A stretch of 33,567 nucleotides of DNA from the IMG/VR virus record IMGVR_UViG_3300025292_000002, positions 1-33,567 of that record; one strand, 5' to 3'. The stretch is from a virus (lineage: Duplodnaviria; Heunggongvirae; Uroviricota; Caudoviricetes). The notes below the pieces were generated by a model, which worked only from the letters and a program-made list of their open reading frames with translations, was not told the DNA's origin and did not search any database. The number at the start of each line of letters is the position of its first letter. Position 1 is the first letter of the stretch. Below are positions 3,848-28,556 of the stretch, piece after piece. A program made the position numbers and the translations under genes.

Positions 3848-3875
3848 TGACCTGAGCATGTCGAAAAACTGCTTA
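3848..3875 (+). ncRNA. Putative cis-regulatory H-type pseudoknot, copy 1
   Basis: TGAC-CTGAGCAT-GTCG-AAAAAC-TGCTTA upstream of the RBS of 3902. Confidence 0.6.
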
Positions 3876-3901
3876 AATATTAAATTGGAGGTATTTTATT
3901 T

Positions 3902-4732
3902 ATGACAAGAACAAAAATTATGCCTGGTGAATTATTTATTGTTGAATACGTAGACGGAGCTATTGTAAAACGTTGGGCAATTAATGATTCTAAGAATTAT
4001 ATTGAACTTGGCGAAGGACGTAAAGCTGCAAAAGGTTTCACCGATTTATTAGTTGAACCAGACGACGCTAAATTAACATTAGCTGATTCTCGTTATCATG
4101 TTAAATCAAATGCTGAAGCTATTAAATTTGTATCTGATGCTGGATTTGAAGAATTTATCTTTGCGGAAGTTAAACTTCAAAAATTGAAATTAGCTAAAGA
4201 AACACAAGTTTATAGCAAAACAGGTTCTCTGTTAGGAACTCTTCCTGCTGGTACGGAAATTGGAACGGATACTGGTACTGCTGGTAACTCAATGCCATAT
4301 TTAATGGTTGCGAACTGTTACAAAAATGCTCAAGGATGGCAATTCCTTAACCAAACAAATTATTCATACGGATTTGTGAACGTGCAACAAGCTTTCGGCT
4401 TGCAACAATTCGATGATAAACGAACTTTAGTTACTGCAAAAACAGAAAACGTAGCACAAGTTGATTGGGCATCTGTTGCTTTAGCAATTGGTACGAAAGA
4501 ACCTGAAACTTTCCTACGTGGAGATTTAACTGCTCCTACAAAAGATGTTGTTGTAACAAATGTTAACGACCATTTTGCTTCAATTGATTTGGCTAAATCT
4601 GAGCTACGTGACCCAATTCAGTATTTTGCAAATCTAAAGAATAAAGCCTTTGTTGAAAAATATTTAGGCAAAATCAATGCTACGAAAGCTGCGGATTTCA
4701 AGAAACAAGCTGATGCTTTCAACGCTAAATAA
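3902..4732 (+). CDS. Hypothetical protein (276 aa)
   Basis: RBS GGAGG, long ORF, own terminator; no family recognised with confidence. Confidence 0.8.
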   Translation: MTRTKIMPGELFIVEYVDGAIVKRWAINDSKNYIELGEGRKAAKGFTDLLVEPDDAKLTLADSRYHVKSNAEAIKFVSDAGFEEFIFAEVKLQKLKLAKETQVYSKTGSLLGTLPAGTEIGTDTGTAGNSMPYLMVANCYKNAQGWQFLNQTNYSYGFVNVQQAFGLQQFDDKRTLVTAKTENVAQVDWASVALAIGTKEPETFLRGDLTAPTKDVVVTNVNDHFASIDLAKSELRDPIQYFANLKNKAFVEKYLGKINATKAADFKKQADAFNAK

Positions 4733-4744
4733 TCAGTAATTTAT

Positions 4745-4773
4745 GAGGACTCTTCGGAGTCCTTATTTTTTTT
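4745..4773 (+). terminator. Intrinsic terminator
   Basis: AGGACTC-TTCG-GAGTCCT plus T-run. Confidence 0.85.
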
Positions 4774-4845
4774 GGTTTGCTATTTATATTGTCATGAGCC
4801 ACGTATATATACTGTATAAAACATACATTGAAAGGGTGTGAAAAA

Positions 4846-6546
4846 ATGGTATCTGAAACAATCTTAAATCATAAAGCTTATATTTATGCTAAAGATGTTG
4901 CTGAAGGAAAGTTCGTTTCTGCGAAATACATTAAAATTGCTTGTCAAAATTTCTTAGATGACGTACACAATCCAGATTGTAAGTACAAAATCGACGAAAA
5001 ACAGCTAGAATTGATTACAAATTTAACAAAATTAATCAATATGGCTACAGGTTTAAAGGTTGGTATTTCAGCTCATGAAGCTTTGGCTGGTTTCCAGTGG
5101 TTCTTCCTTGTAAACGCTTTATGTTGGGTACACAAAGACAAGCCAGAAAAACGTAGATATGAAAAATCTGTACTTTTGATTGCACGTAAAAGCGGAAAAT
5201 CATTCTTAGTTGGTCTAATTTTCATAATTCTTATGATTATTGAGCCAGAATTCTCAGAATTTTACTCAGTTGCGCCAGACCGTGAGCTTTCTTCAATTGT
5301 AAAAAAAGAAATTCAACAAATGATTGATGCTTCACCGTATCTTGGCAAGTATTTTCAACCTTTACGAGCAGAAATTCGTTGTACGTTGAAAAAATCCAAG
5401 TTCGTGCCACTTGCTACGTCTGAAAACCGTATGGACGGACGTTTAGCTAACGTATTCGTTGCCGATGAAGTAGGAGCTTTACGAAATCGTTATCCAATTT
5501 CAGCCATGGAATCATCTCAGATGAACTTGGTCAACAGAACAGGTATTCTGATTTCGACAGCTTATGAATCTCTGCAAAATCCTATGACGGAAGAAGTGGA
5601 ATATGCTGAAAAAGTTTTAGAAGGTAACGTTGAAGACGAAACTTTATTCGCATTGCTTTACAAGCCAGACGACCCTGAAGATTGGTTATCCGATGAAGCG
5701 CTTTTACAAGCCAATCCGCTTGTATTTGACCTTCCAGAAAATTTGGAACAGCTAAAAAAACAACGTAAGAAAGCTGTTGAAATTCCTTCTGAGCAACAAA
5801 ACTTCAAAACTAAGCACATGAACATTTTCGTTGATGGTGATATTAGTGAAGTTTATGTTTCTACGGAAGATTTACGTAAATGTAAGGTAGAATCTTACAA
5901 TTGGCGTGGCAGAGATGTATATATCGGGGTCGATTTATCACAAACTAACGATAATACTGCAGTAGCCATGGTAACTTACGATGCAGACCTTAGGAAATAT
6001 GTTGCGAAAGTTTGGGCATTTTTACCTGGCGCAAACATTGAAACTAAGAATAAGCTCGAGAAAATTGATTACAGAATCATGCAGAAAAACGGTTTTTGTT
6101 TCTTTTCTGGCGATAAAGTAATTAATTATGGCGAAATTGAAAAATTTGTTAATGAATTGCCAGAAAAATATGGCGTGACGATAAAAAATATCGGTTATGA
6201 CCGATACAACTGTATTTCTTCAGCAAATAAATGGTATGAATCTGGTCATGAAGTAACAGAAATCAAACAGCATTCATCTGTGCTTCACCCAGCCACCAAA
6301 TTGCTGAAGGAATCTATTCTGAAACAAGATTTTGCTTACGAAAAAAATGAATTGTTCGAGCGAAACGTTTCAAACGCTCGTGAAGTTAAAGATAACAATT
6401 TAAATAGCTATGTCAACAAGAAAAAATCAACTGGTAAAATTGATATGTTGGCTGCTACGATAAATGCTATGGTTCTTTGGAATCTTGAACGTGAAGAAGG
6501 ATTGAGCGTTTATGAGGAAGACGAACGTGGTTTGATAGTATTGTAA
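4846..6546 (+). CDS. terL: Terminase large subunit
   Basis: Walker A (ARKSGKS), Walker B (FVADEVG), nuclease YIGVDLSQTND and KIDMLAA; start placed at ATG4846. Confidence 0.95.
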   Translation: MVSETILNHKAYIYAKDVAEGKFVSAKYIKIACQNFLDDVHNPDCKYKIDEKQLELITNLTKLINMATGLKVGISAHEALAGFQWFFLVNALCWVHKDKPEKRRYEKSVLLIARKSGKSFLVGLIFIILMIIEPEFSEFYSVAPDRELSSIVKKEIQQMIDASPYLGKYFQPLRAEIRCTLKKSKFVPLATSENRMDGRLANVFVADEVGALRNRYPISAMESSQMNLVNRTGILISTAYESLQNPMTEEVEYAEKVLEGNVEDETLFALLYKPDDPEDWLSDEALLQANPLVFDLPENLEQLKKQRKKAVEIPSEQQNFKTKHMNIFVDGDISEVYVSTEDLRKCKVESYNWRGRDVYIGVDLSQTNDNTAVAMVTYDADLRKYVAKVWAFLPGANIETKNKLEKIDYRIMQKNGFCFFSGDKVINYGEIEKFVNELPEKYGVTIKNIGYDRYNCISSANKWYESGHEVTEIKQHSSVLHPATKLLKESILKQDFAYEKNELFERNVSNAREVKDNNLNSYVNKKKSTGKIDMLAATINAMVLWNLEREEGLSVYEEDERGLIVL

Positions 6547-6564
6547 TTGAAAATTAATATTCAA
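6547..6564. promoter_or_regulatory. 18-bp palindrome (1 mismatch)
   Basis: TTGAAAATTAATATTCAA between the terL stop and the portal RBS. Confidence 0.8.
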
Positions 6565-6574
6565 AAAGGAGAAA

Positions 6575-7939
6575 ATGAACATGGGATTTTGGAGCAAATT
6601 AACCGAAAAAAGAAATGCAACAAGCGAAATGGAGCAAAGAGAATCATTTTCAAGTAGCAGTGCTGCTTTTGCTTCCATGTTTGGTAGTGCAACAAATATC
6701 AGCGAAGAACAAGTTGTGAAAATTCCAACTGCTGAGTCTTGTCTGAATTTGATTACGAGCTCAATTGCTCAAATGCCGATTTATTTATACAAAGAAAATG
6801 CTGATGGTTCAGTCGAAAAAGTTTTAGACGACAATCGTGTACACTTACTGAATCACGAGCCAAACGAGCTTTTAAACGGCTACAATTTCAAAAAACAAAT
6901 CGTTAAGGATTATTTATTACACGGTGGAGCTTACATCTCAGTTGAAAAGCTGGGCAATAACGTAAATGAGTTATATCCATTGCCAGCACAAAATATCGCT
7001 GTCACAAAATACATTAAGGACGGATATAAAGCTTCAGCTGACATTCGACTTACTGCATTGGATGGAATTGGCGGTTATCAAAACAAAGAAATTAAATTCA
7101 AACCTTATGAATTGATGATTTCTTTAGCTGATTCTAAAGATGGAGTTACAACTCGAGGATTGCTGATGAAAGGCGAAAAGATTTTCCAACAAGCTTTAGA
7201 CGAAATGGAATATACGTACAATATTTTCCAACGTGGAGCTTTGCCACTCGGTTTATTAAAAACAAGCGCTCGTTTATCTCAAGTTGCTATTGACAGATTA
7301 AGAGATGCTTGGGCAAATCTATATGGTGGTGCCAAAAACTCTGCTAAAACAGTTATTTTAGAAGAAGGAATGGAATACTCGCCATTATCAATGAAACCAA
7401 CTGATTTACAGTTAAATGATAGCAAAAAAGGAACAAACGCTGAAGTATGTAAATTGTTTGGTGTGCCAGAATCAATGATTTCTACAGCTGCCAATAAATA
7501 TGGCTCAATTGAGCAAAACAATTTACACTTTTTAAAACACACATTGTCACCTATTATCGGTTCATTTGAATCAGCTGCTGACAAATCATTGTTGCTTGAA
7601 AAAGAAAAAGCAGAAGGATATTTCTTCCGTTTTGACACAAGCGAATTGTTACGAGCTACCGAAAAGGAACGTACTGAAGCGGTAGCAATGGGTCTTGAAA
7701 AGGGATTATTAACAATCAATGAAGCTCGTGCTAAGCTCGATTTACCAAACATTAAGGACGATGTGTTCATGTGGGGATTACAAAACGTTCTATTCAACCC
7801 TGAAACTGGCGAAATGAAAGTGCCTAATATGGGATTAACTGGAGGAGAAAATAATGGTGATAATACCGCAACAAATAATGATAGCGCTGGAATGGATAAT
7901 GTTAAACCTAAAGATAAGCTTAAAGACAAATCCGACTGA
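6575..7939 (+). CDS. Portal protein, HK97 family
   Basis: Follows terL; L.HGGAY, NAG-like GAKNSAKTVILEEGMEY and TINEARAKLDLP motifs. Confidence 0.93.
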   Translation: MNMGFWSKLTEKRNATSEMEQRESFSSSSAAFASMFGSATNISEEQVVKIPTAESCLNLITSSIAQMPIYLYKENADGSVEKVLDDNRVHLLNHEPNELLNGYNFKKQIVKDYLLHGGAYISVEKLGNNVNELYPLPAQNIAVTKYIKDGYKASADIRLTALDGIGGYQNKEIKFKPYELMISLADSKDGVTTRGLLMKGEKIFQQALDEMEYTYNIFQRGALPLGLLKTSARLSQVAIDRLRDAWANLYGGAKNSAKTVILEEGMEYSPLSMKPTDLQLNDSKKGTNAEVCKLFGVPESMISTAANKYGSIEQNNLHFLKHTLSPIIGSFESAADKSLLLEKEKAEGYFFRFDTSELLRATEKERTEAVAMGLEKGLLTINEARAKLDLPNIKDDVFMWGLQNVLFNPETGEMKVPNMGLTGGENNGDNTATNNDSAGMDNVKPKDKLKDKSD

Positions 7940-8090
7940 TTTTTTATTGCTGATGGGATTGTTTCTCATCGGCTATTTTGTTTTTAACACATTTGGATTT
8001 AGCATTTTAACTTTATATGCAGGGTCAATTTGCGTACTTGCAAGCTTCGTGTTAGAGCTTGTCCCTAAATCGAAGAGAAAAAGAAACTAG
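7854..8090 (+). CDS. Small membrane protein between portal and protease (start uncertain, possibly 7899)
   Basis: Two hydrophobic segments and a basic C-terminus; fills the gap to the protease RBS. Confidence 0.55.
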   Translation: MVIIPQQIMIALEWIMLNLKISLKTNPTDFLLLMGLFLIGYFVFNTFGFSILTLYAGSICVLASFVLELVPKSKRKRN

Positions 8091-8102
8091 GAGGAATATT
8101 AA

Positions 8103-9041
8103 ATGGAAAAATTAGAACTCCGCTTCGTCGATGCTACAATGGAAAGTGTCGATGATGGCTTAAAAGTATCTGGTTATGTAAACAAAACAAATCAATGGAG
8201 CCAAGTATTAGGACAACGTAAAAAATTCGTTGAACGTATTTTACCTGGCACATTTAGCCAAGCAATTGGCGCTGGTAATGAAATTCACTTTTTAGCTGAA
8301 CATGACAATGCAAAAATTTTATCATCTACACGAAATGGCTCTTTAAATTTACGTGAAGATGAAAACGGTCTGTACATGGAAGCTACAATCAGCGATACTA
8401 GTTGGGGTCGTGATTATCATACGTTAATCAAGGACGGAATTATTCAAAATATGTCTTTTGGTATGCAAGTAACAAAAGATAGCTGGAGAAAATTGCCTGA
8501 TGGAATTTATGAGCGCTCAATCAGTGGTTTATATTTAGCTGAAGTTTCAGCGGTACGAAATCCTGCTTACGTTCAATCAACAATTCAAGCTCGTTCAATC
8601 GAAGTTGTTGAAGATGTTGATATTCCTGAAGATGTTGAAATCGAAAATGAAAATAGAGAGGAATCAAATCAAATGTTAGATATCGAAACTCGTGATAAAT
8701 TGGCTACTGTTTTAGAGGAAATTTTAGTTGCACTTAAGGACAATAAAGCTGCTGAAAATGTTGTTGAACAAGTTGAAGAAGTTGTTGAAGCAATCGCTGA
8801 TGGAGCAGAAGAAATTGTTGAAGAAGTTGTGGAAAAAGTTGAGGAAGTTGTTGAAACAGCTAAAGAAGCTACAGACAAAGTCGTTGACAAAGTTGAAGAA
8901 GTTGTCGAGGAAGTAGTTGAAGAAGTTAAAGACGTGGTTGAAGCTGTTGAAGAAACAGTGAAAAAAGCTGTCGAAGACGTTAAAGAAGCTGTTACAGACC
9001 CAGATAATTCAAAATTTTTAACAAAATTATTAGATTTTTAA
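8103..9041 (+). CDS. Prohead protease, HK97 family, with acidic low-complexity C-terminal extension
   Basis: SGY, FVERILPGTF, LAEHD, GLY, MSFG and EVSAVRNPAY motifs. Confidence 0.9.
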   Translation: MEKLELRFVDATMESVDDGLKVSGYVNKTNQWSQVLGQRKKFVERILPGTFSQAIGAGNEIHFLAEHDNAKILSSTRNGSLNLREDENGLYMEATISDTSWGRDYHTLIKDGIIQNMSFGMQVTKDSWRKLPDGIYERSISGLYLAEVSAVRNPAYVQSTIQARSIEVVEDVDIPEDVEIENENREESNQMLDIETRDKLATVLEEILVALKDNKAAENVVEQVEEVVEAIADGAEEIVEEVVEKVEEVVETAKEATDKVVDKVEEVVEEVVEEVKDVVEAVEETVKKAVEDVKEAVTDPDNSKFLTKLLDF

Positions 9042-9131
9042 TAAATTGCCCTTTACTTTGTACCGCTTGGCATATAAATACTATATAAGAGCTAAACGGT
9101 ACAAAGTTTACAAATTTAATGGAGGTAAATC

Positions 9132-10307
9132 ATGAATATTAAAGCTTTAATCGAAAAGAAAAACGAATTAAAAGCAGAATATCGTGCTTTATATGAGCAG
9201 GCAGTTGCTGAAAAGCGTAGCTTAGATGGTGACGCTCGTGAAGCTGAATTATCTGCAGAAATCGCTGATTTAAATGCACAAATCAAGGAAGAAGAAGCTC
9301 GTGCAGCTCAAGAAGCTGACACAGTTGAAAATATTGAATCCGAAAAGGAGAAAAGAGAAATGGAAAAACAATTAACTCAAGAACAAGAAGTTCGTGCTCT
9401 TGAACAATTCATTCGTAAAACTGGCGGAGAAGAATTACGTTCGATGGAAGCTGGTTCTGAACCAGGTAAAATCGTTGTACCTACTCACCTGTCAAATGTA
9501 ATCATCGAAAAATTAAGTGAAAATGCTCCAATCTTCGCTCGCACACGTAACTTTACACCAGTAAACGGTTTCTTAGACATCTTACGTGAAGATAACATGG
9601 GTACTGCTGGATTCGTTGGCGAAATGAAAGAACTTGAGAAATCTGATTTCTCACTAAACAAAGTAACACTTAGCCAAAAACGTGTCGGTACTGCAATTGA
9701 GCTTTCTCAACACTTAGTAAACGATTCTGGTATTGATATTGTTGGTTATGCAACTCGTATCTTAGGTCGTCGTCTTGGCTTAACAATTGATTCATCTATT
9801 TTAACTGGTCAAAAAGATACAGAATTTGAAGGTATTTTAAATGACACAGTTGTTCTTAAGCCACAAATCGCACTTTCAGATAAAGCAATTACAATCGACG
9901 AGTTACTTGACCTTTATAACTCTATGAACCCAGCTTACATCGGTGGAGCTGTTTGGGTTGTTGGTCGTTTAACGTTCAACATGATTGCTAAATTGAAAGA
10001 CAACAACGGTCACTACTTCTTAGTTCGTGAAGTATCTGAAAATGGCCCAATCTACAAGTTATTCGGTCAACCAGTTGTTATCAATGACACAATGCCTGCT
10101 CCAGAAGCTGGAGAAAAAGCTGTTGTATTCGCTAACTTCTCTGAAGGTTACGCTACAATGACGAAAAAAGGCTTCAATTTCCAACATATTTCTGGTGACA
10201 CAACTCAAGCAATGCGTGGTTCTCACTTGCTATTACTTGACGGTTACATGGATGGAAAAATCCTTAACCCACCAGCAATCAAGATTTTACAAATGAAAAC
10301 TGTTTAA
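9132..10307 (+). CDS. Major capsid protein, HK97 fold with N-terminal coiled scaffold (delta-like) domain
   Basis: Position after protease; VVPTHLSNVIIE, L.GxPVV and DGKI motifs; strong RBS GGAGG. Confidence 0.93.
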   Translation: MNIKALIEKKNELKAEYRALYEQAVAEKRSLDGDAREAELSAEIADLNAQIKEEEARAAQEADTVENIESEKEKREMEKQLTQEQEVRALEQFIRKTGGEELRSMEAGSEPGKIVVPTHLSNVIIEKLSENAPIFARTRNFTPVNGFLDILREDNMGTAGFVGEMKELEKSDFSLNKVTLSQKRVGTAIELSQHLVNDSGIDIVGYATRILGRRLGLTIDSSILTGQKDTEFEGILNDTVVLKPQIALSDKAITIDELLDLYNSMNPAYIGGAVWVVGRLTFNMIAKLKDNNGHYFLVREVSENGPIYKLFGQPVVINDTMPAPEAGEKAVVFANFSEGYATMTKKGFNFQHISGDTTQAMRGSHLLLLDGYMDGKILNPPAIKILQMKTV

Positions 10308-10318
10308 TTTTTAAATTC

Positions 10319-10347
10319 GGAGCTTGATTAATTTCGAGCTCCTTTTT
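10319..10347 (+). terminator. Intrinsic terminator after the capsid gene
   Basis: GGAGCTTGA...TCGAGCTCC plus T-run. Confidence 0.7.
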
Positions 10348-10352
10348 ATCAT

Positions 10353-10425
10353 GTGTTTGTAGCTCAGTTGGTAGAGCAGGAAGCTGTTAACTTCTTGGTC
10401 GGTGGTTCGAGTCCATCCTTGCACG
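10353..10425 (+). tRNA. tRNA-Asn(GTT), acceptor stem imperfect (two U-U), no encoded CCA
   Basis: D arm AGCTCAGTTGGTAGAGC, anticodon arm GGAAG-CTGTTAA-CTTCT, T arm GGTGG-TTCGAGT-CCATC. Confidence 0.75.
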
Positions 10426-10502
10426 TTTAGGAGAATGGAGTAATTTCTTCATTTTCCTCCATTTGATTTGATTTGATTTCCTCCGATGTTTCGGAGGTTT
10501 CT

Positions 10503-10576
10503 AGGAGCTTAGTTTAGAGGTAAAATATCGGTCTCCAAAACCGAGGTCACAGGTTCGATTCCTGTAGCTCCTGCCA
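10503..10576 (+). tRNA. tRNA-Trp(CCA)
   Basis: Acceptor AGGAGCT/AGCTCCT, anticodon arm TCGGT-CTCCAAA-ACCGA, T loop TTCGATT, encoded CCA. Confidence 0.93.
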
Positions 10577-10577
10577 T

Positions 10578-10649
10578 GGGGTATTAGTATAGCGGTTAGT
10601 ATTACTGGCTTCCACCCAGTAGGCGTGGGTTCGATTCCCACATACCTCT
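10578..10649 (+). tRNA. tRNA-Gly(TCC)
   Basis: Acceptor GGGGTAT/ATACCTC, anticodon arm ACTGG-CTTCCAC-CCAGT, T arm GTGGG-TTCGATT-CCCAC. Confidence 0.9.
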
Positions 10650-10654
10650 TTCAT

Positions 10655-10726
10655 GGGGATATAGTGTAGCGGTTAACACACATGGCTGTCTACCATGTAG
10701 CACGGGTTCGAGTCCCGTTATCCTCG
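10655..10726 (+). tRNA. tRNA-Asp(GTC)
   Basis: Acceptor GGGGATA/TATCCTC, anticodon arm CATGG-CTGTCTA-CCATG, T arm ACGGG-TTCGAGT-CCCGT. Confidence 0.9.
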
Positions 10727-10964
10727 TTGTATACTCACACCGCAAAAAGGCGACTATGCGGGCTACGCTGTGGTAGCAATGATAAGCGCTTATCATTGAA
10801 GAAATAAAAGGCACAGAATCGGATGAGATGAGTACATCTGAATCGGGCAAGAAGATGGTTCTTGCTTGTCGTCAAAAAAAGAGCTTAATATGTTTTCTTC
10901 CGCAAGGAAGTTTTCCGTTCAAAAGGCGCTCGAATAAAAAAACGAAACTAACCTTTTAGAATAT

Positions 10965-11041
10965 GGCGCATTGGTGAAGCGGTCTAACACACTCGACTTT
11001 CTATCGAGCATTCAGGGGTTCGAATCCCCTATGCGCTTCCA
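10965..11041 (+). tRNA. tRNA-Glu(TTC)
   Basis: Acceptor GGCGCAT/ATGCGCT, anticodon arm CTCGA-CTTTCTA-TCGAG, T arm AGGGG-TTCGAAT-CCCCT, encoded CCA. Confidence 0.9.
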
Positions 11042-11042
11042 T

Positions 11043-11117
11043 ATAGACGTAGGCTAGAGGTCAGTCACTCCGTTTGGGGCGGAGGTCACGCAGGTTCGAA
11101 TCCTGCCGTCTGTACCA
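11043..11117 (+). tRNA. tRNA-Pro(TGG)
   Basis: Acceptor ATAGACG/CGTCTGT, anticodon arm CTCCG-TTTGGGG-CGGAG, T arm GCAGG-TTCGAAT-CCTGC, encoded CCA. Confidence 0.88.
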
Positions 11118-11118
11118 C

Positions 11119-11191
11119 GCTGAATTAGCTCAATTGGTAGAGCAGCTGATTTGTAATCAGCAGGTTGCGGGTTCAATTCCTGCATTCAGCT
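11119..11191 (+). tRNA. tRNA-Thr(TGT)
   Basis: Acceptor GCTGAAT/ATTCAGC, anticodon arm GCTGA-TTTGTAA-TCAGC, canonical D arm. Confidence 0.93.
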
Positions 11192-11197
11192 TACTTA

Positions 11198-11220
11198 AAA
11201 CCTCTTCGGAGGTCTTTTTA
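11198..11220 (+). terminator. Intrinsic terminator after the tRNA cluster
   Basis: ACCTC-TTCG-GAGGT plus T-run. Confidence 0.75.
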
Positions 11221-11253
11221 TTTATTTAAGCACCAAATGGAAGGAGAATAAAC

Positions 11254-11451
11254 ATGAAAGTTAAATTTAATACTGCAACAGTTTTTGCTTCTCCTAGTTT
11301 ATCAATCGCAGGAAATGAAATCGTTGATTTAGACGAACATCTTGTAAAGCCATATATTGAAGCTGGCATTGCAACGGTTGTTGAAGAAGAAGTTGTTGAG
11401 GAAAAACCAAAACGTACAACAAAGAAAAAAGCTAAAGAAGATGTTGAGTAA
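11254..11451 (+). CDS. Small head-associated hypothetical protein
   Basis: RBS AAGGAG; short protein with a basic tail, of the kind found before head-tail connector genes. Confidence 0.7.
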   Translation: MKVKFNTATVFASPSLSIAGNEIVDLDEHLVKPYIEAGIATVVEEEVVEEKPKRTTKKKAKEDVE

Positions 11452-11490
11452 AATCAACATTTTACAATAAAAACATATAAGGATAGGTGA

Positions 11491-11805
11491 ATGCAAATGG
11501 CAGTTGATTTCACAAATGTAAAATTCAGTGATATTGACCTTGAATTTGTCAAGCACTATCTCCGAATCGAGCCAGATATCACGGAAGATGATATTGAATT
11601 ATCATTATTTATCGACACAGCTAAAGGTTTTGTGTTGGAACATACTGATATGAGCTTGGAAGAGCTCAATGAAACGAAATCGGCAAATATTATTTATTTA
11701 CGAATGATTTCTGAACTGTACCACAATCGCTCAGTAACAAATGGGACACAAATTGACCCAATCTATTCAATGCTATTAAAAAACGTTAGGAAAATCAGCT
11801 TATGA
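11491..11805 (+). CDS. Head-tail connector (gp6/gp15-like)
   Basis: VKHYLRIE.D..EDD motif, ELYHNR; synteny. Confidence 0.85.
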   Translation: MQMAVDFTNVKFSDIDLEFVKHYLRIEPDITEDDIELSLFIDTAKGFVLEHTDMSLEELNETKSANIIYLRMISELYHNRSVTNGTQIDPIYSMLLKNVRKISL

Positions 11806-12140
11806 TGCAATCAGTTATCAATGCTGGCGAACTAAAAGATAGCTTAGTAATTTTACAAAAAACTGGTGACGGTGGAACAGATGAAAATGGTTTCCCAGTG
11901 GAAGGGCTGAAGGAACTATTTAAACTACGATGTAAGCGAAAGACAATTTCAACTCGAGAGTACATTGGTGCTGACCGAGAAATTAGCGCTTTAACTTACA
12001 AGTTTATCATTCGTAAACGAGAAATTGATAATGAAATGTTTGTCAGATACAAAGGCAAAGATTTTGACATTAAACATGTCCATGAAATTGACGAGTATTT
12101 TTTAGAGCTGACAGTTACAGAAACTCAGGAATTGGAGTGA
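11802..12140 (+). CDS. Head closure / head-tail adaptor (SPP1 gp16-like)
   Basis: NAGEL...L...Q, F.IR, MFVRYKGKDFDI motifs; synteny. Confidence 0.82.
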   Translation: MMQSVINAGELKDSLVILQKTGDGGTDENGFPVEGLKELFKLRCKRKTISTREYIGADREISALTYKFIIRKREIDNEMFVRYKGKDFDIKHVHEIDEYFLELTVTETQELE

Positions 12141-20147: not shown

Positions 20148-20176
20148 CCTTACAAGGTAGCTGAACACAGTATAAT
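20148..20176 (+). promoter_or_regulatory. CCTTACA-N16-TATAAT promoter-like motif
   Basis: Back-to-back with the leftward SigA-like promoter. Confidence 0.65.
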
Positions 20177-21857: not shown

Positions 21858-21869
21858 GAGGAAACGGAT

Positions 21870-22064
21870 ATGAGCAATTTTTCAGCACAATATGAAACAT
21901 TCGCAGCTGACGGTAGTAAACGTGTCACGGAAATGACCGTGAAGCTTACTATTAAAGATGCCACTGGTGAGTTCGGTGTTACCGACGTTATGCTTCAACG
22001 TGGAACAATTTCCACTGAGTGGGCAGCTCATCCTTCGGAGATAAAATGGACAACAAACGAATAA
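21870..22064 (+). CDS. Small tail-associated protein
   Basis: RBS AGGAGG; TDVMLQRG...W motif echoed by ADLQLQSG in the next gene. Confidence 0.7.
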   Translation: MSNFSAQYETFAADGSKRVTEMTVKLTIKDATGEFGVTDVMLQRGTISTEWAAHPSEIKWTTNE

Positions 22065-22909
22065 ACCGTAAAGATTGGACACGTTATCTCCAAACCTTTT
22101 CTAAGGACAAAACCAAAAAAGTTAAATCCATTTCATTCGACCTTAAAGCCAGCGATTTCGTTGGCGATTTAAATGTAGCTGATTTGCAGTTGCAAAGCGG
22201 AAACCAAGTAAGCGTTCAGGTGCCACACACATCTGAAATGCTTAAAGAAAAGAAACATAGCATAGATGAATATGCTTTCTTAGAAACTGTTAATGGTTGG
22301 AAAAAGAAAGGCGTTCAACCAGTTGCTAAGGGTTTCTATTCTGGCATGAAAAATCGTGTGTTTAACATTGTTGGCAGAGGACATGAAGTTGTTGCTTTGC
22401 CAAACGTTTTTCATGAAGATTACAAAAAAGAGCTTTTAACAAGCGGATTAGATTTAGAGTTGTATGCCAAAGACGATTTCGATTTATTACGTATCAGCAC
22501 AAACGATGGCGCATATGTTGAAGGTCGTAAATATGAGCAAGAAGTATTACAAAGCAATCCGTTAAATCGAAAGTATACTCGTGAGTTCTATTTTGAAGGC
22601 GGTAAAGCTGGAGAAAAAATTACATTATCAACTACATTGATTAGAGCTGATGTTGGCGGACGTAATATGCCAATTGGCCAACGTGAAATCTACATCAATG
22701 GCGGTAAAATGAAATTGTCACGACAACGATTAATGGTATCACCATTTGGTAGCTTCCGTTTGCGAATTGAATTTTACAAGCAAGTTACTGAAGGTGTATA
22801 TAATGAAAAAACTGGAGAGACGGAAGTTCTAACATATATGAAAGATGTTGGAATCGGTTATTATGGAACGGCTCAATTTGGTCAAGTTGAAGGACACCGC
22901 AGATTTTAG
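22046..22909 (+). CDS. Tail-associated hypothetical protein
   Basis: RBS GGAG before ATG22046; within the tail-tip module. Confidence 0.7.
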   Translation: MDNKRINRKDWTRYLQTFSKDKTKKVKSISFDLKASDFVGDLNVADLQLQSGNQVSVQVPHTSEMLKEKKHSIDEYAFLETVNGWKKKGVQPVAKGFYSGMKNRVFNIVGRGHEVVALPNVFHEDYKKELLTSGLDLELYAKDDFDLLRISTNDGAYVEGRKYEQEVLQSNPLNRKYTREFYFEGGKAGEKITLSTTLIRADVGGRNMPIGQREIYINGGKMKLSRQRLMVSPFGSFRLRIEFYKQVTEGVYNEKTGETEVLTYMKDVGIGYYGTAQFGQVEGHRRF

Positions 22910-22920
22910 GTGTCCTTTTT
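22889..22920 (+). terminator. Terminator-like hairpin with the upstream stop codon at the loop/3' arm junction
   Basis: AAGGACACC...GGTGTCCTT plus TTT. Confidence 0.6.
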
Positions 22921-22949
22921 CCTTACAATTTGACTCTTTTAAATACAAT
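22921..22949 (+). promoter_or_regulatory. CCTTACA-N16-TACAAT promoter-like motif
   Basis: Directly after a terminator-like hairpin and before the GH18-like tail gene. Confidence 0.6.
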
Positions 22950-22969
22950 GTTGATGAGAGGTGAAGGCA

Positions 22970-25900
22970 ATGACAAAATTATTAACTTGGACATTACATG
23001 CACCGAGTTCTTCACAATTCAGCTCATATTACAAATTAGCTGATGGTGAACCTTGGTATAGTAAAAATTATCAATTGGTAGATAAAAATGGAATGTCTAC
23101 ATGGGATTACCGAAAAAGAAGTTTCATTGAAATGATTGAAAAGTATCCTCATAAATTTTATGCCATTGGTCTCCATCAATTTGGTGTGAACCAACAAGGA
23201 CGAGTTTATAACATGGGATTCGGTACTCATGCCTTTGATAAATATGTTTTAAACAATTACAACTATGAAGAAACCGAAAGCACACCTATAATCGAAGCAA
23301 AAATAGAATTGCCAGTTGAGACATCGTTGCGTTATTTAATGCACAATTACCCACAAATTAAATGGTCTTTACAGTTTTTATGTACAACTAACAGCGTAGG
23401 TAATCGTGTAGAACCTGTTTTAGACAATGTAAATAAAGCTCAAGACAAATTTATCGACGACGTATACCATACGATGAGATTATATCTTGAAGCTGGGTTT
23501 ACCAACATTAAAGGCGTCGAAATTGACTTTGAGAAAACAACTTCACGACCAAATGATGAAAAAAAATTCAGAGATTTGCTTGTACGTGTGAAAAATGCTG
23601 TGTGTATTCCTTTAGGTTTGGAATTACGTGTCAACATGTTTGCTATGACAGGCGATTTAACACCAAGCTATTATGCTTGGCACGATTACGCTACTATAGC
23701 TAGTGGTCGAGACAAAAACGGAAATCAAGCAGTTGATGAATTTCAGCTCATGACATACGATTTTAGCTGGGGTGGTTCAGCACCAGGTCCTTCAACTCCA
23801 TTATGGTGGTTGGAAAATGTGCTGAAACATGTTAAAGATTTAGAAAATCGTGGCATTTGGAAAACAAACAAAGTATTCATTGGTAATGCTGGTTACGGAA
23901 GACGTTGGCCATTAGGTGAAAACAGATACGGTGTAACACTTGATTACAAACAATTGATGTTAGCTCAAAATGGAACGTACATTCACAACCCAGGAGAAGA
24001 AACAACTCACAATGGAGAATATGCTTTCTGGTTCAATGACCATGATTTCATCCCAATTTCTGGCTTCAATGACGATGAATCGGATTACCAAAAAACATAC
24101 ATTGGTGTTTATGACCGATTCAGATTAGGGAAAAATGACGGAGCTCGTTTTGATAATATGAACAGGCCCCCAGCGGGTAATTATGTTACCAATTATAGCC
24201 GTAAACAATTTCCTATTTTCAGCGGTGTAGCTGGTTATGATTTCAATGGTATTTCTAACAAAGACAAAAACGGTGAAGTTGATGCCAGCGATAGATATAT
24301 CAAAAACGAAATCACTGAAGCTGTAACAGATACATTATATGTAGCTGGTCGAACAACAGGTTTAGATTTGAGTTCAGTTAAAACAGGATATTCAACACAA
24401 CCATCTAAAGGCGGTATTTCCGTAAATGGTAAAGTTGATTATACGATAAATGCTACAGGAAGTTATCGTTTGGTGGCGTTAGTATTTTATCCATTCTTTG
24501 ATAAAGCTGATATTCCGTTCACATTAAATGGGACACCTTACAATATTAGCGGAAATGATGAAGAATGGTATCCATTCATGCAAGCTCAAGAAAAGCATTT
24601 TGTTGATTTGGGGACATTTAATTTCAGCGGTGAAAACAAAATTACAGTTGGAGTTACAGCTGGTGCTCAAATTTGGGGATTCGTTGCGGTGAGTAATTTC
24701 GATTACAATTTACGTGGCGGAGAAATAACATTCCCAACGAACTGTCAACCAATGAAACGTCGTAACACCGTACAAAATGAAACCGTATCATTGAAAAATG
24801 CTCAATATCCTTCAGTAATGCGAATTGTTGGTGAAACGTTAACACGTCCACCACGACCAGCAATTATTTGGGAAGATATTTTCTCAAGTTATGAAAACCC
24901 AGAAAAGCCAGAAGAAGGCGTTCCTGTTACAAAAGGATTCCCATACTACACGCAAGCTCCAGAAGGATTCTCAGTCAATGATTGGGTAGCCACAAAAGGT
25001 GGAGAAGCCGATTATGATTATGCTTACAATGATTCTCGAGGGAAAAGTTCTCAGCTTGTATTGAATAAGAAGTTTGGCTCCAATATTGCGGTAGATGTTG
25101 AGCTACGTGGACACAAGGACGATTCAACAATGACCTATGGTATCCGTCTTTTAGCTACGGAAAAATCGCCAAACAGTGGTTATGTTTGTGAACTTAACTA
25201 TTCTGAAGGTAAAGTTAAAGTTGTTTATGAAACTCCTGGCTCTGGTGGCATACCAACGAGCGAAACAATTTATTCAAAAGACATGAGCCCTGCATTATTG
25301 AAAATGAATGGACAACGAATTAAATTGAAAGCTTATATAATTGGTAACAAACTTTCATTCTGGGTCGAGAAAAATCCTTATTTTGACCGTGTTACTATTC
25401 CTTACAATCCTGGTTCAGGTGCTTATGGAGTGTATAATTTAATGGGAAGATTGAAAGTTTATAAATATAATGTTTCAAGCTTAGACCGTTATGAAAGAAT
25501 GGAACGAATTGAAATTATTACAGGTGGCAAAACTTATTATTTCGATGAAGTTGAGCGTGACTTGACTCAGGACGGATATGATAAGTATGGCTTCATTAAA
25601 TTCTCTGGATATCCAGCTGAAATCGCTGACCAAATAGGTACGCCTGGTGGCGAAGATGGAGCTACAATTGACCCTAACGGAAACACTGGGACAATTCTCG
25701 ATACTCAGCATGATGTAAATTATGAATGGAGTAACGATTACAAAAACAAATTCTTAGCGGCTGTTCCTGCATGGCAAGGACGACAAGACGTTAAGATAAG
25801 ATTTAGAGATGCTGGTATATGGTTTAGAAATTTCTATGTTGGGGACAATGAAGGAATGTCAGTAGCTTACAATAGTGACCGTATTGGTTTCATTCGTACA

Positions 25901-25993
25901 GCCAACATGGTTAATGATTATGGTTGTAAGGGTATTGCTTTGTGGACATTAGGACAAGAAGACCCTACAATATATTCATATATTTCAGGATAA
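22970..25993 (+). CDS. Large tail protein with GH18-like glycoside hydrolase motifs
   Basis: GVEIDFE, LMTYD, GNAGYGRRW and terminal KGIALWTLGQED motifs; RBS GAGGTG before ATG22970. Confidence 0.8.
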   Translation: MTKLLTWTLHAPSSSQFSSYYKLADGEPWYSKNYQLVDKNGMSTWDYRKRSFIEMIEKYPHKFYAIGLHQFGVNQQGRVYNMGFGTHAFDKYVLNNYNYEETESTPIIEAKIELPVETSLRYLMHNYPQIKWSLQFLCTTNSVGNRVEPVLDNVNKAQDKFIDDVYHTMRLYLEAGFTNIKGVEIDFEKTTSRPNDEKKFRDLLVRVKNAVCIPLGLELRVNMFAMTGDLTPSYYAWHDYATIASGRDKNGNQAVDEFQLMTYDFSWGGSAPGPSTPLWWLENVLKHVKDLENRGIWKTNKVFIGNAGYGRRWPLGENRYGVTLDYKQLMLAQNGTYIHNPGEETTHNGEYAFWFNDHDFIPISGFNDDESDYQKTYIGVYDRFRLGKNDGARFDNMNRPPAGNYVTNYSRKQFPIFSGVAGYDFNGISNKDKNGEVDASDRYIKNEITEAVTDTLYVAGRTTGLDLSSVKTGYSTQPSKGGISVNGKVDYTINATGSYRLVALVFYPFFDKADIPFTLNGTPYNISGNDEEWYPFMQAQEKHFVDLGTFNFSGENKITVGVTAGAQIWGFVAVSNFDYNLRGGEITFPTNCQPMKRRNTVQNETVSLKNAQYPSVMRIVGETLTRPPRPAIIWEDIFSSYENPEKPEEGVPVTKGFPYYTQAPEGFSVNDWVATKGGEADYDYAYNDSRGKSSQLVLNKKFGSNIAVDVELRGHKDDSTMTYGIRLLATEKSPNSGYVCELNYSEGKVKVVYETPGSGGIPTSETIYSKDMSPALLKMNGQRIKLKAYIIGNKLSFWVEKNPYFDRVTIPYNPGSGAYGVYNLMGRLKVYKYNVSSLDRYERMERIEIITGGKTYYFDEVERDLTQDGYDKYGFIKFSGYPAEIADQIGTPGGEDGATIDPNGNTGTILDTQHDVNYEWSNDYKNKFLAAVPAWQGRQDVKIRFRDAGIWFRNFYVGDNEGMSVAYNSDRIGFIRTANMVNDYGCKGIALWTLGQEDPTIYSYISG

Positions 25994-25995
25994 GA

Positions 25996-26019
25996 AAAGG
26001 AGCTTTATGCTCCTTTTTT
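25996..26019 (+). terminator. Intrinsic terminator
   Basis: AAAGGAGC-TTTAT-GCTCCTTT plus T-run. Confidence 0.75.
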
Positions 26020-26046
26020 AATAAATAAAAAATGGAGGAATTTATT

Positions 26047-27075
26047 ATGGCAGTATGGATTGAAGATTATGTTCGTGTAAATGAGTACACTCGTCCTGGT
26101 TATAAACTTTTAGGTGTTAGAGGTATTGTTGTGCATTATACAGCAACTCCTGGCGCTAGTGCAAAAAATGAAAGAGATTACTTCAATGGCACTTGTATTG
26201 AAGACGAGCGTTATGCTTCGGCACATCTTTTCGTTGATAAAAATGAAGCTCGTTTAATCTTGCCACTTAATGAAGTAGCTTACCACGCAAATGAAAAAGC
26301 TTGTCGTGTTCCAGCATTGAAAGCTACAGCTAGTTATTACACTGGCGGTTCAGCTAACTTAACAGCTATTGGTGTTGAAATGTGTATTGAAAAAGACGGA
26401 AGTTTACACCCAAACACATTGCAAAGAACAATCGCTGTTGTTTCTGAATTGTGTAAAATGTTTGGATTAAATTCTAACAACGTTTACCGTCATTATGATG
26501 TTACTGGTAAAAATTGTCCAGCATTCTGGGTAAGTAATCCTGCAGGATTCACAAGCTTCAAAAATTCATTATCTAGCGGAGGTTCAGGTGGAGGATACCA
26601 ACCAACACCACAACCACCAGCTGAAACAAGCGACGACGGAGCAATTGGTTACATTGATGTAATCGTAGATGCTTTAAACGTTCGTAACGATGCAAGCTTT
26701 GACGCTGGTGTTGTTAAAACAATTCATCCTGGCACACCGTACAAGGTGTATGCTGAGAAAAACGGCTTATACAACCTTGGCGGAAAACAATGGTGTTCAG
26801 CTGGTTCTAAATTCGTTAAATTCACACCGTATGCGAAACCAAAACCACAAGGTTTCAAAACTGGCGATTATCAAGGCAAAGTTCGAATCACTGCTGATTC
26901 ATTAAATGTTAGAGCTGGACGTGGCGTAGGTCACGCTGTCTTAGGAAGCTTTAAACAAGGTCAAGTAGTTGATGTTTGGTATATCGCACCAGCTCCAGAT
27001 GGTTCTTTATGGGGTTCATGCGGAATAAACGGAAAAACAGGATTTATCAATCTTGGATTTGCAGTTCCAGCTTAA
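26047..27075 (+). CDS. Endolysin: N-acetylmuramoyl-L-alanine amidase (Amidase_2, XlyA/CwlA-like) with two SH3b-like domains
   Basis: IVVHYT, SAH..VD, AYHA, IGVEMC, RHYD..GKNCP; two LNVR SH3b-like repeats. Confidence 0.92.
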   Translation: MAVWIEDYVRVNEYTRPGYKLLGVRGIVVHYTATPGASAKNERDYFNGTCIEDERYASAHLFVDKNEARLILPLNEVAYHANEKACRVPALKATASYYTGGSANLTAIGVEMCIEKDGSLHPNTLQRTIAVVSELCKMFGLNSNNVYRHYDVTGKNCPAFWVSNPAGFTSFKNSLSSGGSGGGYQPTPQPPAETSDDGAIGYIDVIVDALNVRNDASFDAGVVKTIHPGTPYKVYAEKNGLYNLGGKQWCSAGSKFVKFTPYAKPKPQGFKTGDYQGKVRITADSLNVRAGRGVGHAVLGSFKQGQVVDVWYIAPAPDGSLWGSCGINGKTGFINLGFAVPA

Positions 27076-27114
27076 TAGCTGGAGCTGATTTTCATAATAA
27101 AGGAGCGCTTACCA

Positions 27115-27531
27115 ATGAAAGAATTTGCTGGAATCTTTTCAATCGTTGCCAGTTTAGCGACGTTTCTTTTTGGTGGCTTTGATGTGACATTACAAATATT
27201 ATCAGTGTTTATTGTTTGTGATTTCATCACGGGGCTATTAAAAGGCTGGTACACAGGTTCACTATCTTCACAGCAAGGGTATAAAGGCATAATCAAAAAA
27301 GCTGGTATTATGTTTGTTATTATAGTAGCGAATATGTTGGACATCCTTACAGGGACTCCATTATTTAGAATGCCCGTAGTTTATTTCTTTGTGGCTATTG
27401 AAGGTGTAAGTATTCTCGAGAACTTAGGAAAAATTGGTGTACCAATCCCTGAAGTTCTTTTAGATAAACTTGCACAGTTGAAAGCTAATGGAAATGCTGG
27501 TCAAGAAGATGAGAAAACTCCGAAGCAATAA
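27115..27531 (+). CDS. Holin (toxin secretion/phage lysis holin family)
   Basis: Three hydrophobic segments; DFITG, G..KK and E..SILEN..K.G.P.P motifs. Confidence 0.9.
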   Translation: MKEFAGIFSIVASLATFLFGGFDVTLQILSVFIVCDFITGLLKGWYTGSLSSQQGYKGIIKKAGIMFVIIVANMLDILTGTPLFRMPVVYFFVAIEGVSILENLGKIGVPIPEVLLDKLAQLKANGNAGQEDEKTPKQ

Positions 27532-27547
27532 TTTCGGAGTTTTTTTC
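27511..27547 (+). terminator. Intrinsic terminator with the holin stop codon in the loop
   Basis: AAAACTCCGAA...TTCGGAGTTTT plus T-run. Confidence 0.75.
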
Positions 27548-27555
27548 ATTTTGCT

Positions 27556-27584
27556 CCTTACATAACAAATATATTCAATATAAT
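27556..27584 (+). promoter_or_regulatory. CCTTACA-N16-TATAAT promoter-like motif
   Basis: After the holin terminator, upstream of the pseudoknot and 27670. Confidence 0.7.
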
Positions 27585-27614
27585 AGTACAGTAATAAATA
27601 AGAAGTACATAATG

Positions 27615-27642
27615 TGACCTGAGTAAGTCGATAAACTGCTCA
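27615..27642 (+). ncRNA. Putative cis-regulatory H-type pseudoknot, copy 2
   Basis: TGAC-CTGAGTAA-GTCG-ATAAAC-TGCTCA upstream of the RBS of 27670. Confidence 0.6.
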
Positions 27643-27669
27643 CTATAATTTATTTGGAGGAATTTTATT

Positions 27670-28011
27670 ATGTTCGCAGGTCAAAATATTGAAATTACGG
27701 TACCAGGAGCAACTCATCTTGGTGGAGAATTTGGAACAGCTCACGCAGCTCGTCAAGATAATATTATAATTTTACAAGGCGGATTAAATTTAAATGGTGT
27801 AGTAATTGAAGGTTCTGGTTCAGTTGGAACATTACCTGTGGGTTACCGTCCAAAAACTGCACAAAAATTTATTGTTGCTACAGACAAAGGCGCTCGTCTT
27901 TTAACTGTACAAATGAATGGTGAATTAATTCTTCGTGCTGATGGAGATTTACCTGGTGAAACGTTTAGAGAAATTTCATTCGCTGGCGCTTCATTTATTG
28001 CGTATTTTTAA
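27670..28011 (+). CDS. Hypothetical protein resembling a stand-alone tail-fibre/RBP C-terminal head domain
   Basis: GTLPVGYRP motif in a beta-rich 113-aa protein; RBS GGAGG. Confidence 0.65.
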   Translation: MFAGQNIEITVPGATHLGGEFGTAHAARQDNIIILQGGLNLNGVVIEGSGSVGTLPVGYRPKTAQKFIVATDKGARLLTVQMNGELILRADGDLPGETFREISFAGASFIAYF

Positions 28012-28127
28012 GCTTTACTTGATGTAAAGAACTGTATATATATTATATAAGAGCTAAGGAGAAATCCTTGGCTTTTATTTTTTTTAACAAAAAGCTGAAG
28101 TAAAATCACGATTTTATTATATTGGCT

Positions 28128-28156
28128 CCTTACAACTCGGAGTAATTCAATATAAT
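28128..28156 (+). promoter_or_regulatory. CCTTACA-N16-TATAAT promoter-like motif
   Basis: Upstream of the RBS of 28203. Confidence 0.7.
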
Positions 28157-28202
28157 AGTATAGTGACAAACAAACAACTAAGAAAATCGGAGGAAATTTA
28201 TT

Positions 28203-28523
28203 ATGGCACAATGTACTTATATGGACGTTCAATCAGGTGTAGGAACACACAAAGGCTCTCTTTGCATGAGCAAAGATAGTAGCAATATCTATTTCACAGT
28301 TGGAGCACAAGCAATTGGTTCTTGGGGATATGAGGGTTATGCCACAGTTAAATGTGCGGTTCAGGACCCAGATGGTTCATGGAGAGAATTTGCTTCGAAA
28401 CGAGTTCTTGTAACGTACCCAATAAACGGTACATTTACAAACGTTGCTGCATTTGGTAAGAAAATGTATATGAGTGTTAGTTTCCAATATGGCGGATTCG
28501 GTATGATTGAATTCGTTCGATAA
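28203..28523 (+). CDS. Hypothetical beta-rich protein, possible distant paralog of 2914 and 28579
   Basis: RBS GGAGG; F-x-N-V-A-x-x-G and terminal FVR resemble the other two. Confidence 0.75.
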   Translation: MAQCTYMDVQSGVGTHKGSLCMSKDSSNIYFTVGAQAIGSWGYEGYATVKCAVQDPDGSWREFASKRVLVTYPINGTFTNVAAFGKKMYMSVSFQYGGFGMIEFVR

Positions 28524-28528
28524 TTGGC

Positions 28529-28556
28529 TGTCCTGAGTATGACATAAAAATGCTCA
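28529..28556 (+). ncRNA. Putative cis-regulatory H-type pseudoknot, copy 3
   Basis: TGTC-CTGAGTAT-GACA-TAAAAA-TGCTCA upstream of the RBS of 28579; compensatory A-U to U-A change in stem 1. Confidence 0.6.

Follow-up and report, generated by a model that had tools for sequence, protein, structure and literature searches.

A self-contained, portable RNA pseudoknot of 28 nucleotides (nt) was found in the genome of a tailed phage, and it appears to represent an undescribed, very widespread class of phage RNA. The stretch of DNA analysed here, referred to as the window, covers the first 33.6 kilobases (kb; positions 1 to 33,567) of the 97.6-kb virus record IMGVR_UViG_3300025292_000002 (G000). Three 28-nt copies had been proposed in an initial annotation of this DNA, and they were read at 3848-3875, 27615-27642, and 28529-28556, all on the plus strand. 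The element lies in untranslated messenger RNA (mRNA), where its folding can persist. It sits tight against the end of the unit before it, not against the next start codon, and it is strongly over-represented before scaffold and capsid genes. Judging from its sequence and position, it may serve as a portable element at a 5' boundary and stabilise or insulate the cistron that follows, a reading to which we give a probability of roughly 40%.

The degenerate pattern of the initial annotation, with up to three mismatches tolerated, matches the window exactly three times, at the plus-strand copies given above. The chance expectation is 0.01, and none of 100 shuffles reached three copies. Scored with a covariance model, copies 1, 2, and 3 reach 43.1, 44.7, and 41.3 bits, respectively. 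A fourth copy lies outside the window on the minus strand (82125-82152 of G000, 26.3 bits). It has A in place of T at position 1 and carries the A9-U25 variant; a TAA stop codon stands 6 nt before it and a ribosome-binding site 13 nt after it. The minus strand is also the strand of the early and middle genes.

Fold and sequence conservation

The element is an H-type pseudoknot with a stem 1 of 3 base pairs (bp; positions 2-4 with 13-15) and a stem 2 of 5 bp (7-11 with 23-27). In copy 1, for instance, stem 1 is formed by 3849-3851 and 3860-3862, stem 2 by 3854-3858 and 3870-3874, and loop 3 spans 3863-3869. The pairs were tested in scans of the IMG/VR database in which a non-consensus base was forced on one side and the partner was left as N. 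Pair 2-15 (n = 112) was AU in 58, UA in 26, and CG in 26 cases, with two non-Watson-Crick combinations, one of them a G-U wobble. Pair 3-14 occurred as AU (47), UA (46), CG (9), GC (1), and GU (2), with a single mismatch, and pair 4-13 as GC (6) and UG (2). As for stem 2, pair 8-26 was GC 74 times and GU 22 times without any mismatch, and pair 9-25 was AU 80 times and UA 3 times with two mismatches. Pairs 7-27 and 10-24 vary through G-U wobbles only. Pair 11-23 never varies; the scan for A11-U23 variants gave four chance-like matches and was uninformative. Covariation backs five of the eight pairs. A regular expression with positions 2-4, 13-15, and 25-27 free, U23 and G24 fixed, and the 5' strand of stem 2 confined to its observed variants gave 555 matches, and 541 of these have the full set of eight pairs. 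Among 147 distinct sequences sampled at random, the covariation score was 0.527, compared to 0.230 for shuffles, none of which reached the observed value (0 of 500). When the partners were slid along in the same sample, the score was at most 0.127.

An H-type pseudoknot with an A-rich loop 3 had been claimed from the copies in the window, and the covariation of homologs in both stems bears out this fold. The proposed stem 2 stands for the pairing of 7-11 with 23-27, but not for its outermost pair, U6-A28, which shows no covariation. This sixth pair was rejected, since variants with C6 retain A28 or have any base there. The G-U wobbles are compatible with the sense RNA strand only, as they become C-A mismatches on the opposite strand. 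Together with the interleaved stems, they identify an RNA pseudoknot and not a protein-binding palindrome. No pairing to flanking sequence was detected by mutual information across the instances; hence, the 28-nt unit is complete.

Stem 1 is often lengthened by a 1-16 pair, which is formed in about 80% of the cases. Alternatives at position 1 are a C paired with G16 in phage phiEF-1.1 and the A of the fourth copy. Loop 1 has one or two bases, the invariant C5 followed by U6 or C6, and crosses stem 2. Loop 3 has 7 nt with an invariant AAAC at its 3' end and probably runs along stem 1. Moreover, mutual information links position 18 to pair 2-15: the base is usually U when the pair is G-C and usually A when it is A-U, as would be the case with loop 3 in the groove of stem 1. 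This dependence suggests a base triple, to which shared ancestry could contribute. Stem 2 covaries almost only by transitions and is in this sense purine/pyrimidine-restricted. The nested stem-2 hairpin alone has a nearest-neighbour energy of -4.8 to -5.9 kcal/mol.

Nine columns are invariant across the collected instances, and five more are conserved above 90%. The invariant bases include C5, A11, A19-21, U23, and G24, of which U23 and G24 were fixed in every scan pattern, so that their invariance is imposed. AAA at 19-21 and C22 were left free in the loose pattern and are invariant or nearly so. The conserved bases are grouped around the inter-helix junction. RNAs that occur in multiple phyla, form a pseudoknot, and have several bases conserved to at least 97% were described as usually performing sophisticated biochemical tasks (Weinberg et al. 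2017; PMC5737381). The present motif falls into this category, with at least 11 phyla, a pseudoknot, and nine invariant columns, two of them imposed.

Known RNA families were searched as well, and no matching family was found in Rfam 15. At gathering thresholds, the whole window gave seven transfer RNAs (tRNAs) only. A 1-kb stretch with copies 2 and 3 gave nothing credible on the motif at E values up to 10, and 19 other motif-bearing loci, again at gathering thresholds, gave only tRNAs. No description of the motif was found in the literature, where paywalled work and unnamed catalogue entries (e.g., PMC10690425) remain possible sources; its sequence strings retrieved unrelated primer matches only.

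Distribution and placement

The motif is widely distributed among phages and prophages. A scan of IMG/VR with a loose pattern found at least 116 loci; nearly all matches were true copies, and in these matches position 3 matched position 14. From the fetched loci (viral contigs, prophages, and cultured phages), 542 distinct instances were collected. The loose pattern also occurs 91 times in bacterial assemblies with one genome per species. Judged by record titles, these matches cover at least 11 phyla: Bacillota, Bacteroidota, Ignavibacteriota, Patescibacteria, Chloroflexota, Cyanobacteriota, Pseudomonadota, Thermodesulfobacteriota/Myxococcota, Actinomycetota, Acidobacteriota, and Omnitrophota, as well as a phytoplasma. 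Almost always, there is one copy per bacterial contig, as expected for prophages.

Among cultured phages, short-query BLAST retrieved Lactobacillus phages phi jlb1, KC5a, Lj771, phig1e, and phiEF-1.1, Streptococcus Javan phages (including Javan271), Staphylococcus phage StB12, and Anoxybacillus phage A403. The T4-like cyanophages S-H35, S-CRM01, and S-RIM4 were also found, along with S-EIVl, the crAss-like cr7_1, and the T7-like Paracoccus phage ParMal1. Chaseviridae of E. coli have a degenerate form, and the motif is present in phages of Escherichia, Vibrio, and Yersinia. In Escherichia phage flopper (locus L507), a 1.2-kb stretch free of open reading frames (ORFs; 1641-2864) contains a pseudoknot-like copy with one stem-1 pair broken, and a tRNA-like sequence at about 2745-2835 was not called by ARAGORN.

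The position of the element relative to genes is distinctive. An ORF on the same strand ends no more than 200 nt upstream in 480 of the 519 instances. Among these 480, the spacing from stop codon to pseudoknot is 3 nt or less in 5 cases, 4 nt in 16, 5 nt in 83, and 6 nt in 50, and then declines. There is a floor at 4-5 nt and a sharp mode at 5-6 nt, with 149 cases (31%) at 4-6 nt. About 4-5 nt past the A-site codon sit inside the mRNA channel of the ribosome. With such a floor, a terminating ribosome need not unwind the pseudoknot. The distance from the pseudoknot to the start codon is broad, typically 12-45 nt and above 60 nt in 38%. Furthermore, in 54 of 456 instances a terminator-like hairpin abuts the element, its U-tract of about 8 nt ending exactly at position 1. 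This is 10-15 times the background of 3-5 such hairpins per 30-nt bin elsewhere. The succession of terminator and pseudoknot is found in 15 of 45 scaffold leaders versus 4 of 101 others.

Both flanks are diverse, with the 75 genes on each side falling into about 50 clusters, and a dependence of the motif on a single flanking gene family was therefore rejected. The downstream genes nevertheless include a large class: 45 of 148 non-redundant genes (about 30%) code for homologs of proteins annotated as head scaffolding. The cultured phages have their genes arranged as portal, minor head protein or protease, small ORF, pseudoknot, scaffold, and major capsid. The initial annotation had the copies precede accessory and not core structural genes, which is correct for this genome only; given the share of scaffolding genes elsewhere, the restriction to accessory genes is a local accident. 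The claimed AT-rich spacer (8-11 nt) is present in the window, followed by TTGGAGG (3885-3891, 27654-27660, and 28565-28571, plus strand, one 3' of each copy) and then ATG in all three cases. In other phages, the distance to the start codon is broad, and TTGGAGG is merely the local ribosome-binding site, not part of the motif. The description of the element as a 5'-leader module agrees with the wider set, in which it is located in 5' leaders or intercistronic spacers of mRNAs.

Other arrangements were observed. Some contigs have one pseudoknot ahead of each of several small genes, with recurrence every 230-900 nt. In three unrelated contigs (L004, L058, and L081), tRNA-Arg genes lie 2-14 nt 3' of the pseudoknot, and L325 has two tandem pseudoknots about 50 nt apart, then a tRNA-like sequence. 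Many scaffold leaders of Bacillota type (L218, L243, L252, L288, L230, L239, and L337) have one or two short hairpins after the pseudoknot. Their stem sequences differ by locus, GUAAAA directly follows each hairpin, and the combination may be a second conserved module.

In the window, the three copies sit in three small promoter-to-terminator units on the plus strand. Copies 1 and 3 are located between two cistrons, and copy 2 lies in a promoter-proximal 5' leader without an upstream cistron. Unit 1 starts with a promoter at 3360-3387, which belongs to a family (CCTTACA-N13-TCAATATAAT type) with about 38 copies in the genome. Its upstream cistron (3421-3840) has a ribosome-binding site at 3406-3412 and no Pfam, PHROG, or PADLOC match; ATG 3421 is likely the true start, as the mechanical ORF call at 3373 falls inside the promoter. 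Copy 1 begins 7 nt past the TAA of this cistron (3838-3840). The downstream cistron (3902-4732) encodes a protein of 276 amino acids (aa) with no family match and a weak SH3-like lead in Atlas, and an intrinsic terminator (4743-4766) closes the unit just before the large terminase gene (4828-6546). Unit 2 consists of a family promoter at 27557-27584, just downstream of the holin terminator (27511-27546), copy 2, about 24 nt 3' of the transcription start predicted from this promoter, a single cistron of 113 aa (27670-28011), and a terminator (28047-28078). In unit 3, a family promoter (28129-28156) precedes ORF 28203-28523, a member of phrog_24885 (a PHROG of unknown function). Copy 3 starts 5 nt past the TAA of this ORF (28521-28523) and is followed by a phrog_24885 paralog (28579-28947) and a terminator (28951-28972). 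The proteins flanking the copies had no Pfam, informative PHROG, or PADLOC match, and BLAST of the flanking regions against cultured phages found no relatives of this phage.

Homologs of the 276-aa protein are confined to Bacillus-type contigs, including one of Bacillus wiedmannii, and from these homologs the phage is probably of Bacillus type. They also support the portability claimed for the module, since the element was gained or lost upstream of the orthologs. One relative with the same gene order has the family promoter and no pseudoknot before the ortholog, and another has neither. The B. wiedmannii contig (L641, about 1950-1990) has a decayed copy in which two bases are gone from each stem-2 strand, leaving a 3-bp stem.

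Several observations concern the surroundings of the units. Promoters of the form CCTTACA-N13-TCAATAYAAT-AGT were located at 2834-2861, 3360-3387, 20149-20176, 27557-27584, and 28129-28156 on the plus strand and at 32136 on the minus strand, with none between 3360 and 20149. Consequently, transcription from family promoters through the large terminase to tail genes would have to run through the terminators at 3279-3302 and 4743-4766, if no promoter of a different type lies within 4767-4827. An accessory island of 3.7 kb (1136-4766) separates the small terminase (621-1115, Terminase_4) from the large one. It contains a choline-binding-repeat protein, an S8 subtilase, and two promoter-terminator units, unit 1 included, and relative L642 has a shorter version of it. 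Seven tRNA genes are clustered at 10353-11191, within the head-gene region.

Proposed function and rival explanations

The element is transcribed within phage mRNA as a self-contained H-type pseudoknot of 27-28 nt. It sits at the very start of an untranslated spacer, either just past the terminating ribosome, directly after a terminator U-tract, or in a promoter-proximal leader. According to the proposed mechanism, it would remain folded during translation of both neighbouring genes. There, it could act in cis on the downstream RNA as a bookend, either by halting 5'-end-dependent decay arriving from upstream or by marking a site of processing immediately on its 5' side. Expression of the downstream cistron would thereby become stable and independent of the upstream sequence. 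The beneficiaries would be scaffold and major capsid in many phages, which are among the most abundantly made phage products, and promoter-terminator accessory units (morons) in this genome. Tight packing against the preceding unit, with slack only after the element, is what a 5' protector needs. In E. coli and B. subtilis alike, mRNA is protected by structures at its 5' terminus, and the T4 gene 32 leader, which bears a pseudoknot, reportedly stabilises fused transcripts. RNase J, which had been suggested as the nuclease blocked, is excluded as a general partner, since the motif is present in phages of Escherichia, Vibrio, and Yersinia, hosts that are not known to have it. The leading idea is that the element may block 5'-end-dependent decay in general.

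Several points weigh against such a boundary element. The modest energy of the stem-2 hairpin makes no obvious mechanical roadblock. Nine invariant bases and restricted covariation in stem 2 exceed the needs of a roadblock and point to a specific partner, a ligand, or a catalytic core. About 24 nt of leader stand 5' of copy 2, so that this copy does not coincide with the primary 5' end. In three cases a tRNA-Arg gene follows directly, where mRNA stabilisation has no obvious need, and the gene downstream of copy 1 lacks the pseudoknot in a close relative. A doubtful but serious alternative is that the motif is the smallest natural RNA with a specific biochemical function, spread among phages of a dozen phyla, whether as an aptamer whose partner (a metabolite or a host machine) is universally conserved or as a minimal core for catalysis or processing. 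As such, it would control or punctuate capsid-scaffold genes and accessory-gene units. The main rival in its specific form, an aptamer for a universally conserved partner, is unlikely overall. The partner could be a small molecule, in a minimal riboswitch-like arrangement, or a host machine (the 30S platform, the mRNA entry site, or the RNA polymerase exit channel), and binding would tune the neighbouring cistron; alternatively, the element could be a trans-acting sponge. Near-identical sequence in phages and prophages of at least 11 phyla argues for an aptamer, and so does the pseudoknot with its nine invariant positions (U23 and G24 fixed by the scans) and five more above 90%. By the criteria of Weinberg et al. 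(2017; PMC5737381), this pattern predicts a specific biochemical task. The short stems (3 and 5 bp) are of modest stability, as in ligand-dependent aptamers, conserved bases are clustered at the helix junction, and covariation almost only by transitions in stem 2 suggests groove-specific contacts. However, no expression platform was recognised: the ribosome-binding site lies outside the pseudoknot, and there is neither an alternative pairing nor a terminator at a fixed distance. The neighbouring genes have no common metabolic theme, and the lack of a preferred start-codon spacing argues against direct positioning of the 30S subunit. It is improbable, though less so than the readings that follow, that the element is an RNA-processing signal, i.e., a tiny self-cleaving ribozyme or an RNase P-type substrate mimic that separates cistrons with defined ends. 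Small ribozymes are often found at such intercistronic or tRNA-adjacent phage sites, and the motif is intercistronic in phage operons, with a tRNA-Arg gene 2-14 nt after it in three cases. Catalytic cores typically show such a conservation pattern, and the coaxial stems 1 and 2 with a purine after stem 1 would loosely resemble pseudoknotted acceptor-stem mimics. Yet 28 nt without further conserved pairing is far below the size of known self-cleaving classes, the stacked helix has only about 8-9 bp whereas RNase P measures 12 bp, and CCA follows the motif in 8 of 106 cases, which is no enrichment.

Two further explanations each have a slim chance. A put-like processive antiterminator, in which the nascent pseudoknot would bind RNA polymerase and allow read-through of downstream terminators, could explain why the element must remain untranslated and folded, and why it is positioned upstream of long head and tail operons. 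StB12 has a terminator-like hairpin between the pseudoknot and the scaffold gene, and each local copy precedes a terminator and then further genes on the same strand. On the other hand, each local unit is closed by a strong terminator after one gene, which would be pointless with a termination-resistant polymerase, and copies recur every 230-900 nt in arrays. In a third of the scaffold leaders, the terminator is upstream and not downstream; hairpins are enriched upstream, with no clear excess downstream. The second explanation, protection of the 3' end of the upstream cistron against 3'-to-5' exonucleases after a downstream cut, draws on the tight spacing to the upstream stop and the loose spacing to the downstream start; 3'-exonucleolytic decay is universal in bacteria. 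However, the primary transcripts of copy 2 and phiEF-1.1 carry no cistron upstream of the element, a 3' hairpin is already present on the upstream RNA where a terminator directly precedes the element, and the enrichment concerns the class of the downstream gene, the upstream genes being diverse. Stimulation of recoding on the upstream gene, by frameshifting or stop read-through, deserves hardly any credence. Although a stop spacing of 5-8 nt is the geometry of known stimulatory pseudoknots and the mode is 5-6 nt, the strong TAA dominates among nearby stops (58 of 72 at 5 nt), often with T next. Extensions are short in all three frames (median 1-16 codons), the frame of extension shifts with the spacing, there is no conserved slippery site, and many copies follow no ORF. 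The mostly TAA stops and the lack of an extended frame rule recoding out. Just as implausible is that the element imitates a type III antitoxin RNA or works at the DNA level, as a promoter, operator, or recombination hotspot. The first hexamer can look like TTGACC, and the element marks mosaic gene boundaries, but the interleaved stems do not share a dyad axis, each of the four Watson-Crick combinations is tolerated, and G-U occurs on one strand only. Separate promoters are identifiable upstream. A sigma-70 promoter was rejected specifically, because the hexamer spacing and the second hexamer misfit and the real promoters are upstream. The antitoxin mimic, an idea of the initial annotation, is contradicted by copies that are single and kilobases apart instead of tandem, and none of the neighbouring proteins matches a defence or toxin model in PADLOC.

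If the finding is upheld, a new and very widespread class of structured phage RNA would be at hand, only 28 nt in size and with covariation establishing both stems. Nine bases stay invariant in phages of Bacillota, Bacteroidota, Cyanobacteriota, Pseudomonadota, Patescibacteria, and further phyla, and conservation of this degree implies that all bacteria share the partner or mechanism involved. The frequent position before scaffold and major capsid touches the old question of how very different protein amounts are obtained from one late operon, and the related question of post-transcriptional control of scaffold synthesis. Furthermore, cistrons in engineered operons might be insulated or stabilised with this compact part, which would not depend on the host. 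Cultured carriers such as phi jlb1/KC5a, StB12, the Javan prophages, S-H35, and ParMal1 make the different readings directly testable.

Comparison with known systems

The motif was compared with several known RNA elements. ToxI-like antitoxins are tandem direct repeats beside a ToxN/AbiQ-type endoribonuclease gene, whereas the present copies are single and their flanks have no PADLOC match. The frameshift pseudoknot of beet western yellows virus (BWYV; luteovirus type) is closer in form. Both are about 28 nt long, and the loop-1 C and A-rich loop 3 suggest a triplex-braced fold. The spacing of 5-8 nt from the A-site codon is similar too. Unlike the viral element, the motif has no slippery site or extended frame, follows strong TAA stops, and has reversed stem lengths, with a short stem 1 and a longer stem 2.

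The preQ1-I riboswitch (RF00522) is likewise a minimal H-type pseudoknot (about 34 versus 28 nt), and its loop 3 is also rich in A and runs along stem 1. The two further resemble each other in that their junction bases are conserved, their intrinsic stability is modest, and a ribosome-binding site follows closely. In contrast, the motif has no RF00522 match at E values up to 10 and no link to queuosine genes. An expression platform of the preQ1-I kind was not found, as the ribosome-binding site is outside stem 2, 8-11 nt away in this genome and at a variable distance elsewhere.

The gene 32 mRNA leader of T-even phages also carries a compact H-type pseudoknot, whose loop 1 is very short and whose loop 3 has about 7 nt. 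In either case, an unstructured A/U-rich stretch and a ribosome-binding site follow on the 3' side. This leader reportedly acts as a translational operator and a transcript stabiliser. It serves one gene and is a nucleation site for that gene's own product. The motif, however, has no sequence relationship to it and shorter stems (3 and 5 bp); it precedes dozens of unrelated gene families and occurs in phages of many phyla. It does not mark the leader of an autoregulated gene for a protein that binds single-stranded DNA; the downstream genes are diverse, and head scaffolding is the largest class.

As for the proposed logic, the nearest counterparts are 5' stabilisers such as the ompA 5' hairpin, SP82, and ermC, and viral exoribonuclease-resistant RNAs (xrRNAs), where a folded 5' edge shields against 5'-end-dependent decay. 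The xrRNAs are conserved pseudoknotted folds that can be moved between contexts. None of these RNAs has the sequence or fold of the motif, whose predicted stability is modest, and the likeness is one of placement only. Finally, the PeSL cassettes of T4-type phages are, like the motif, short conserved intergenic modules located on the flanks of small accessory genes in variable regions, at points of gene shuffling. They combine a promoter with a stem-loop, operate at the level of DNA or transcription, and belong to one phage group, whereas the motif is a covarying RNA pseudoknot shared across phage families.

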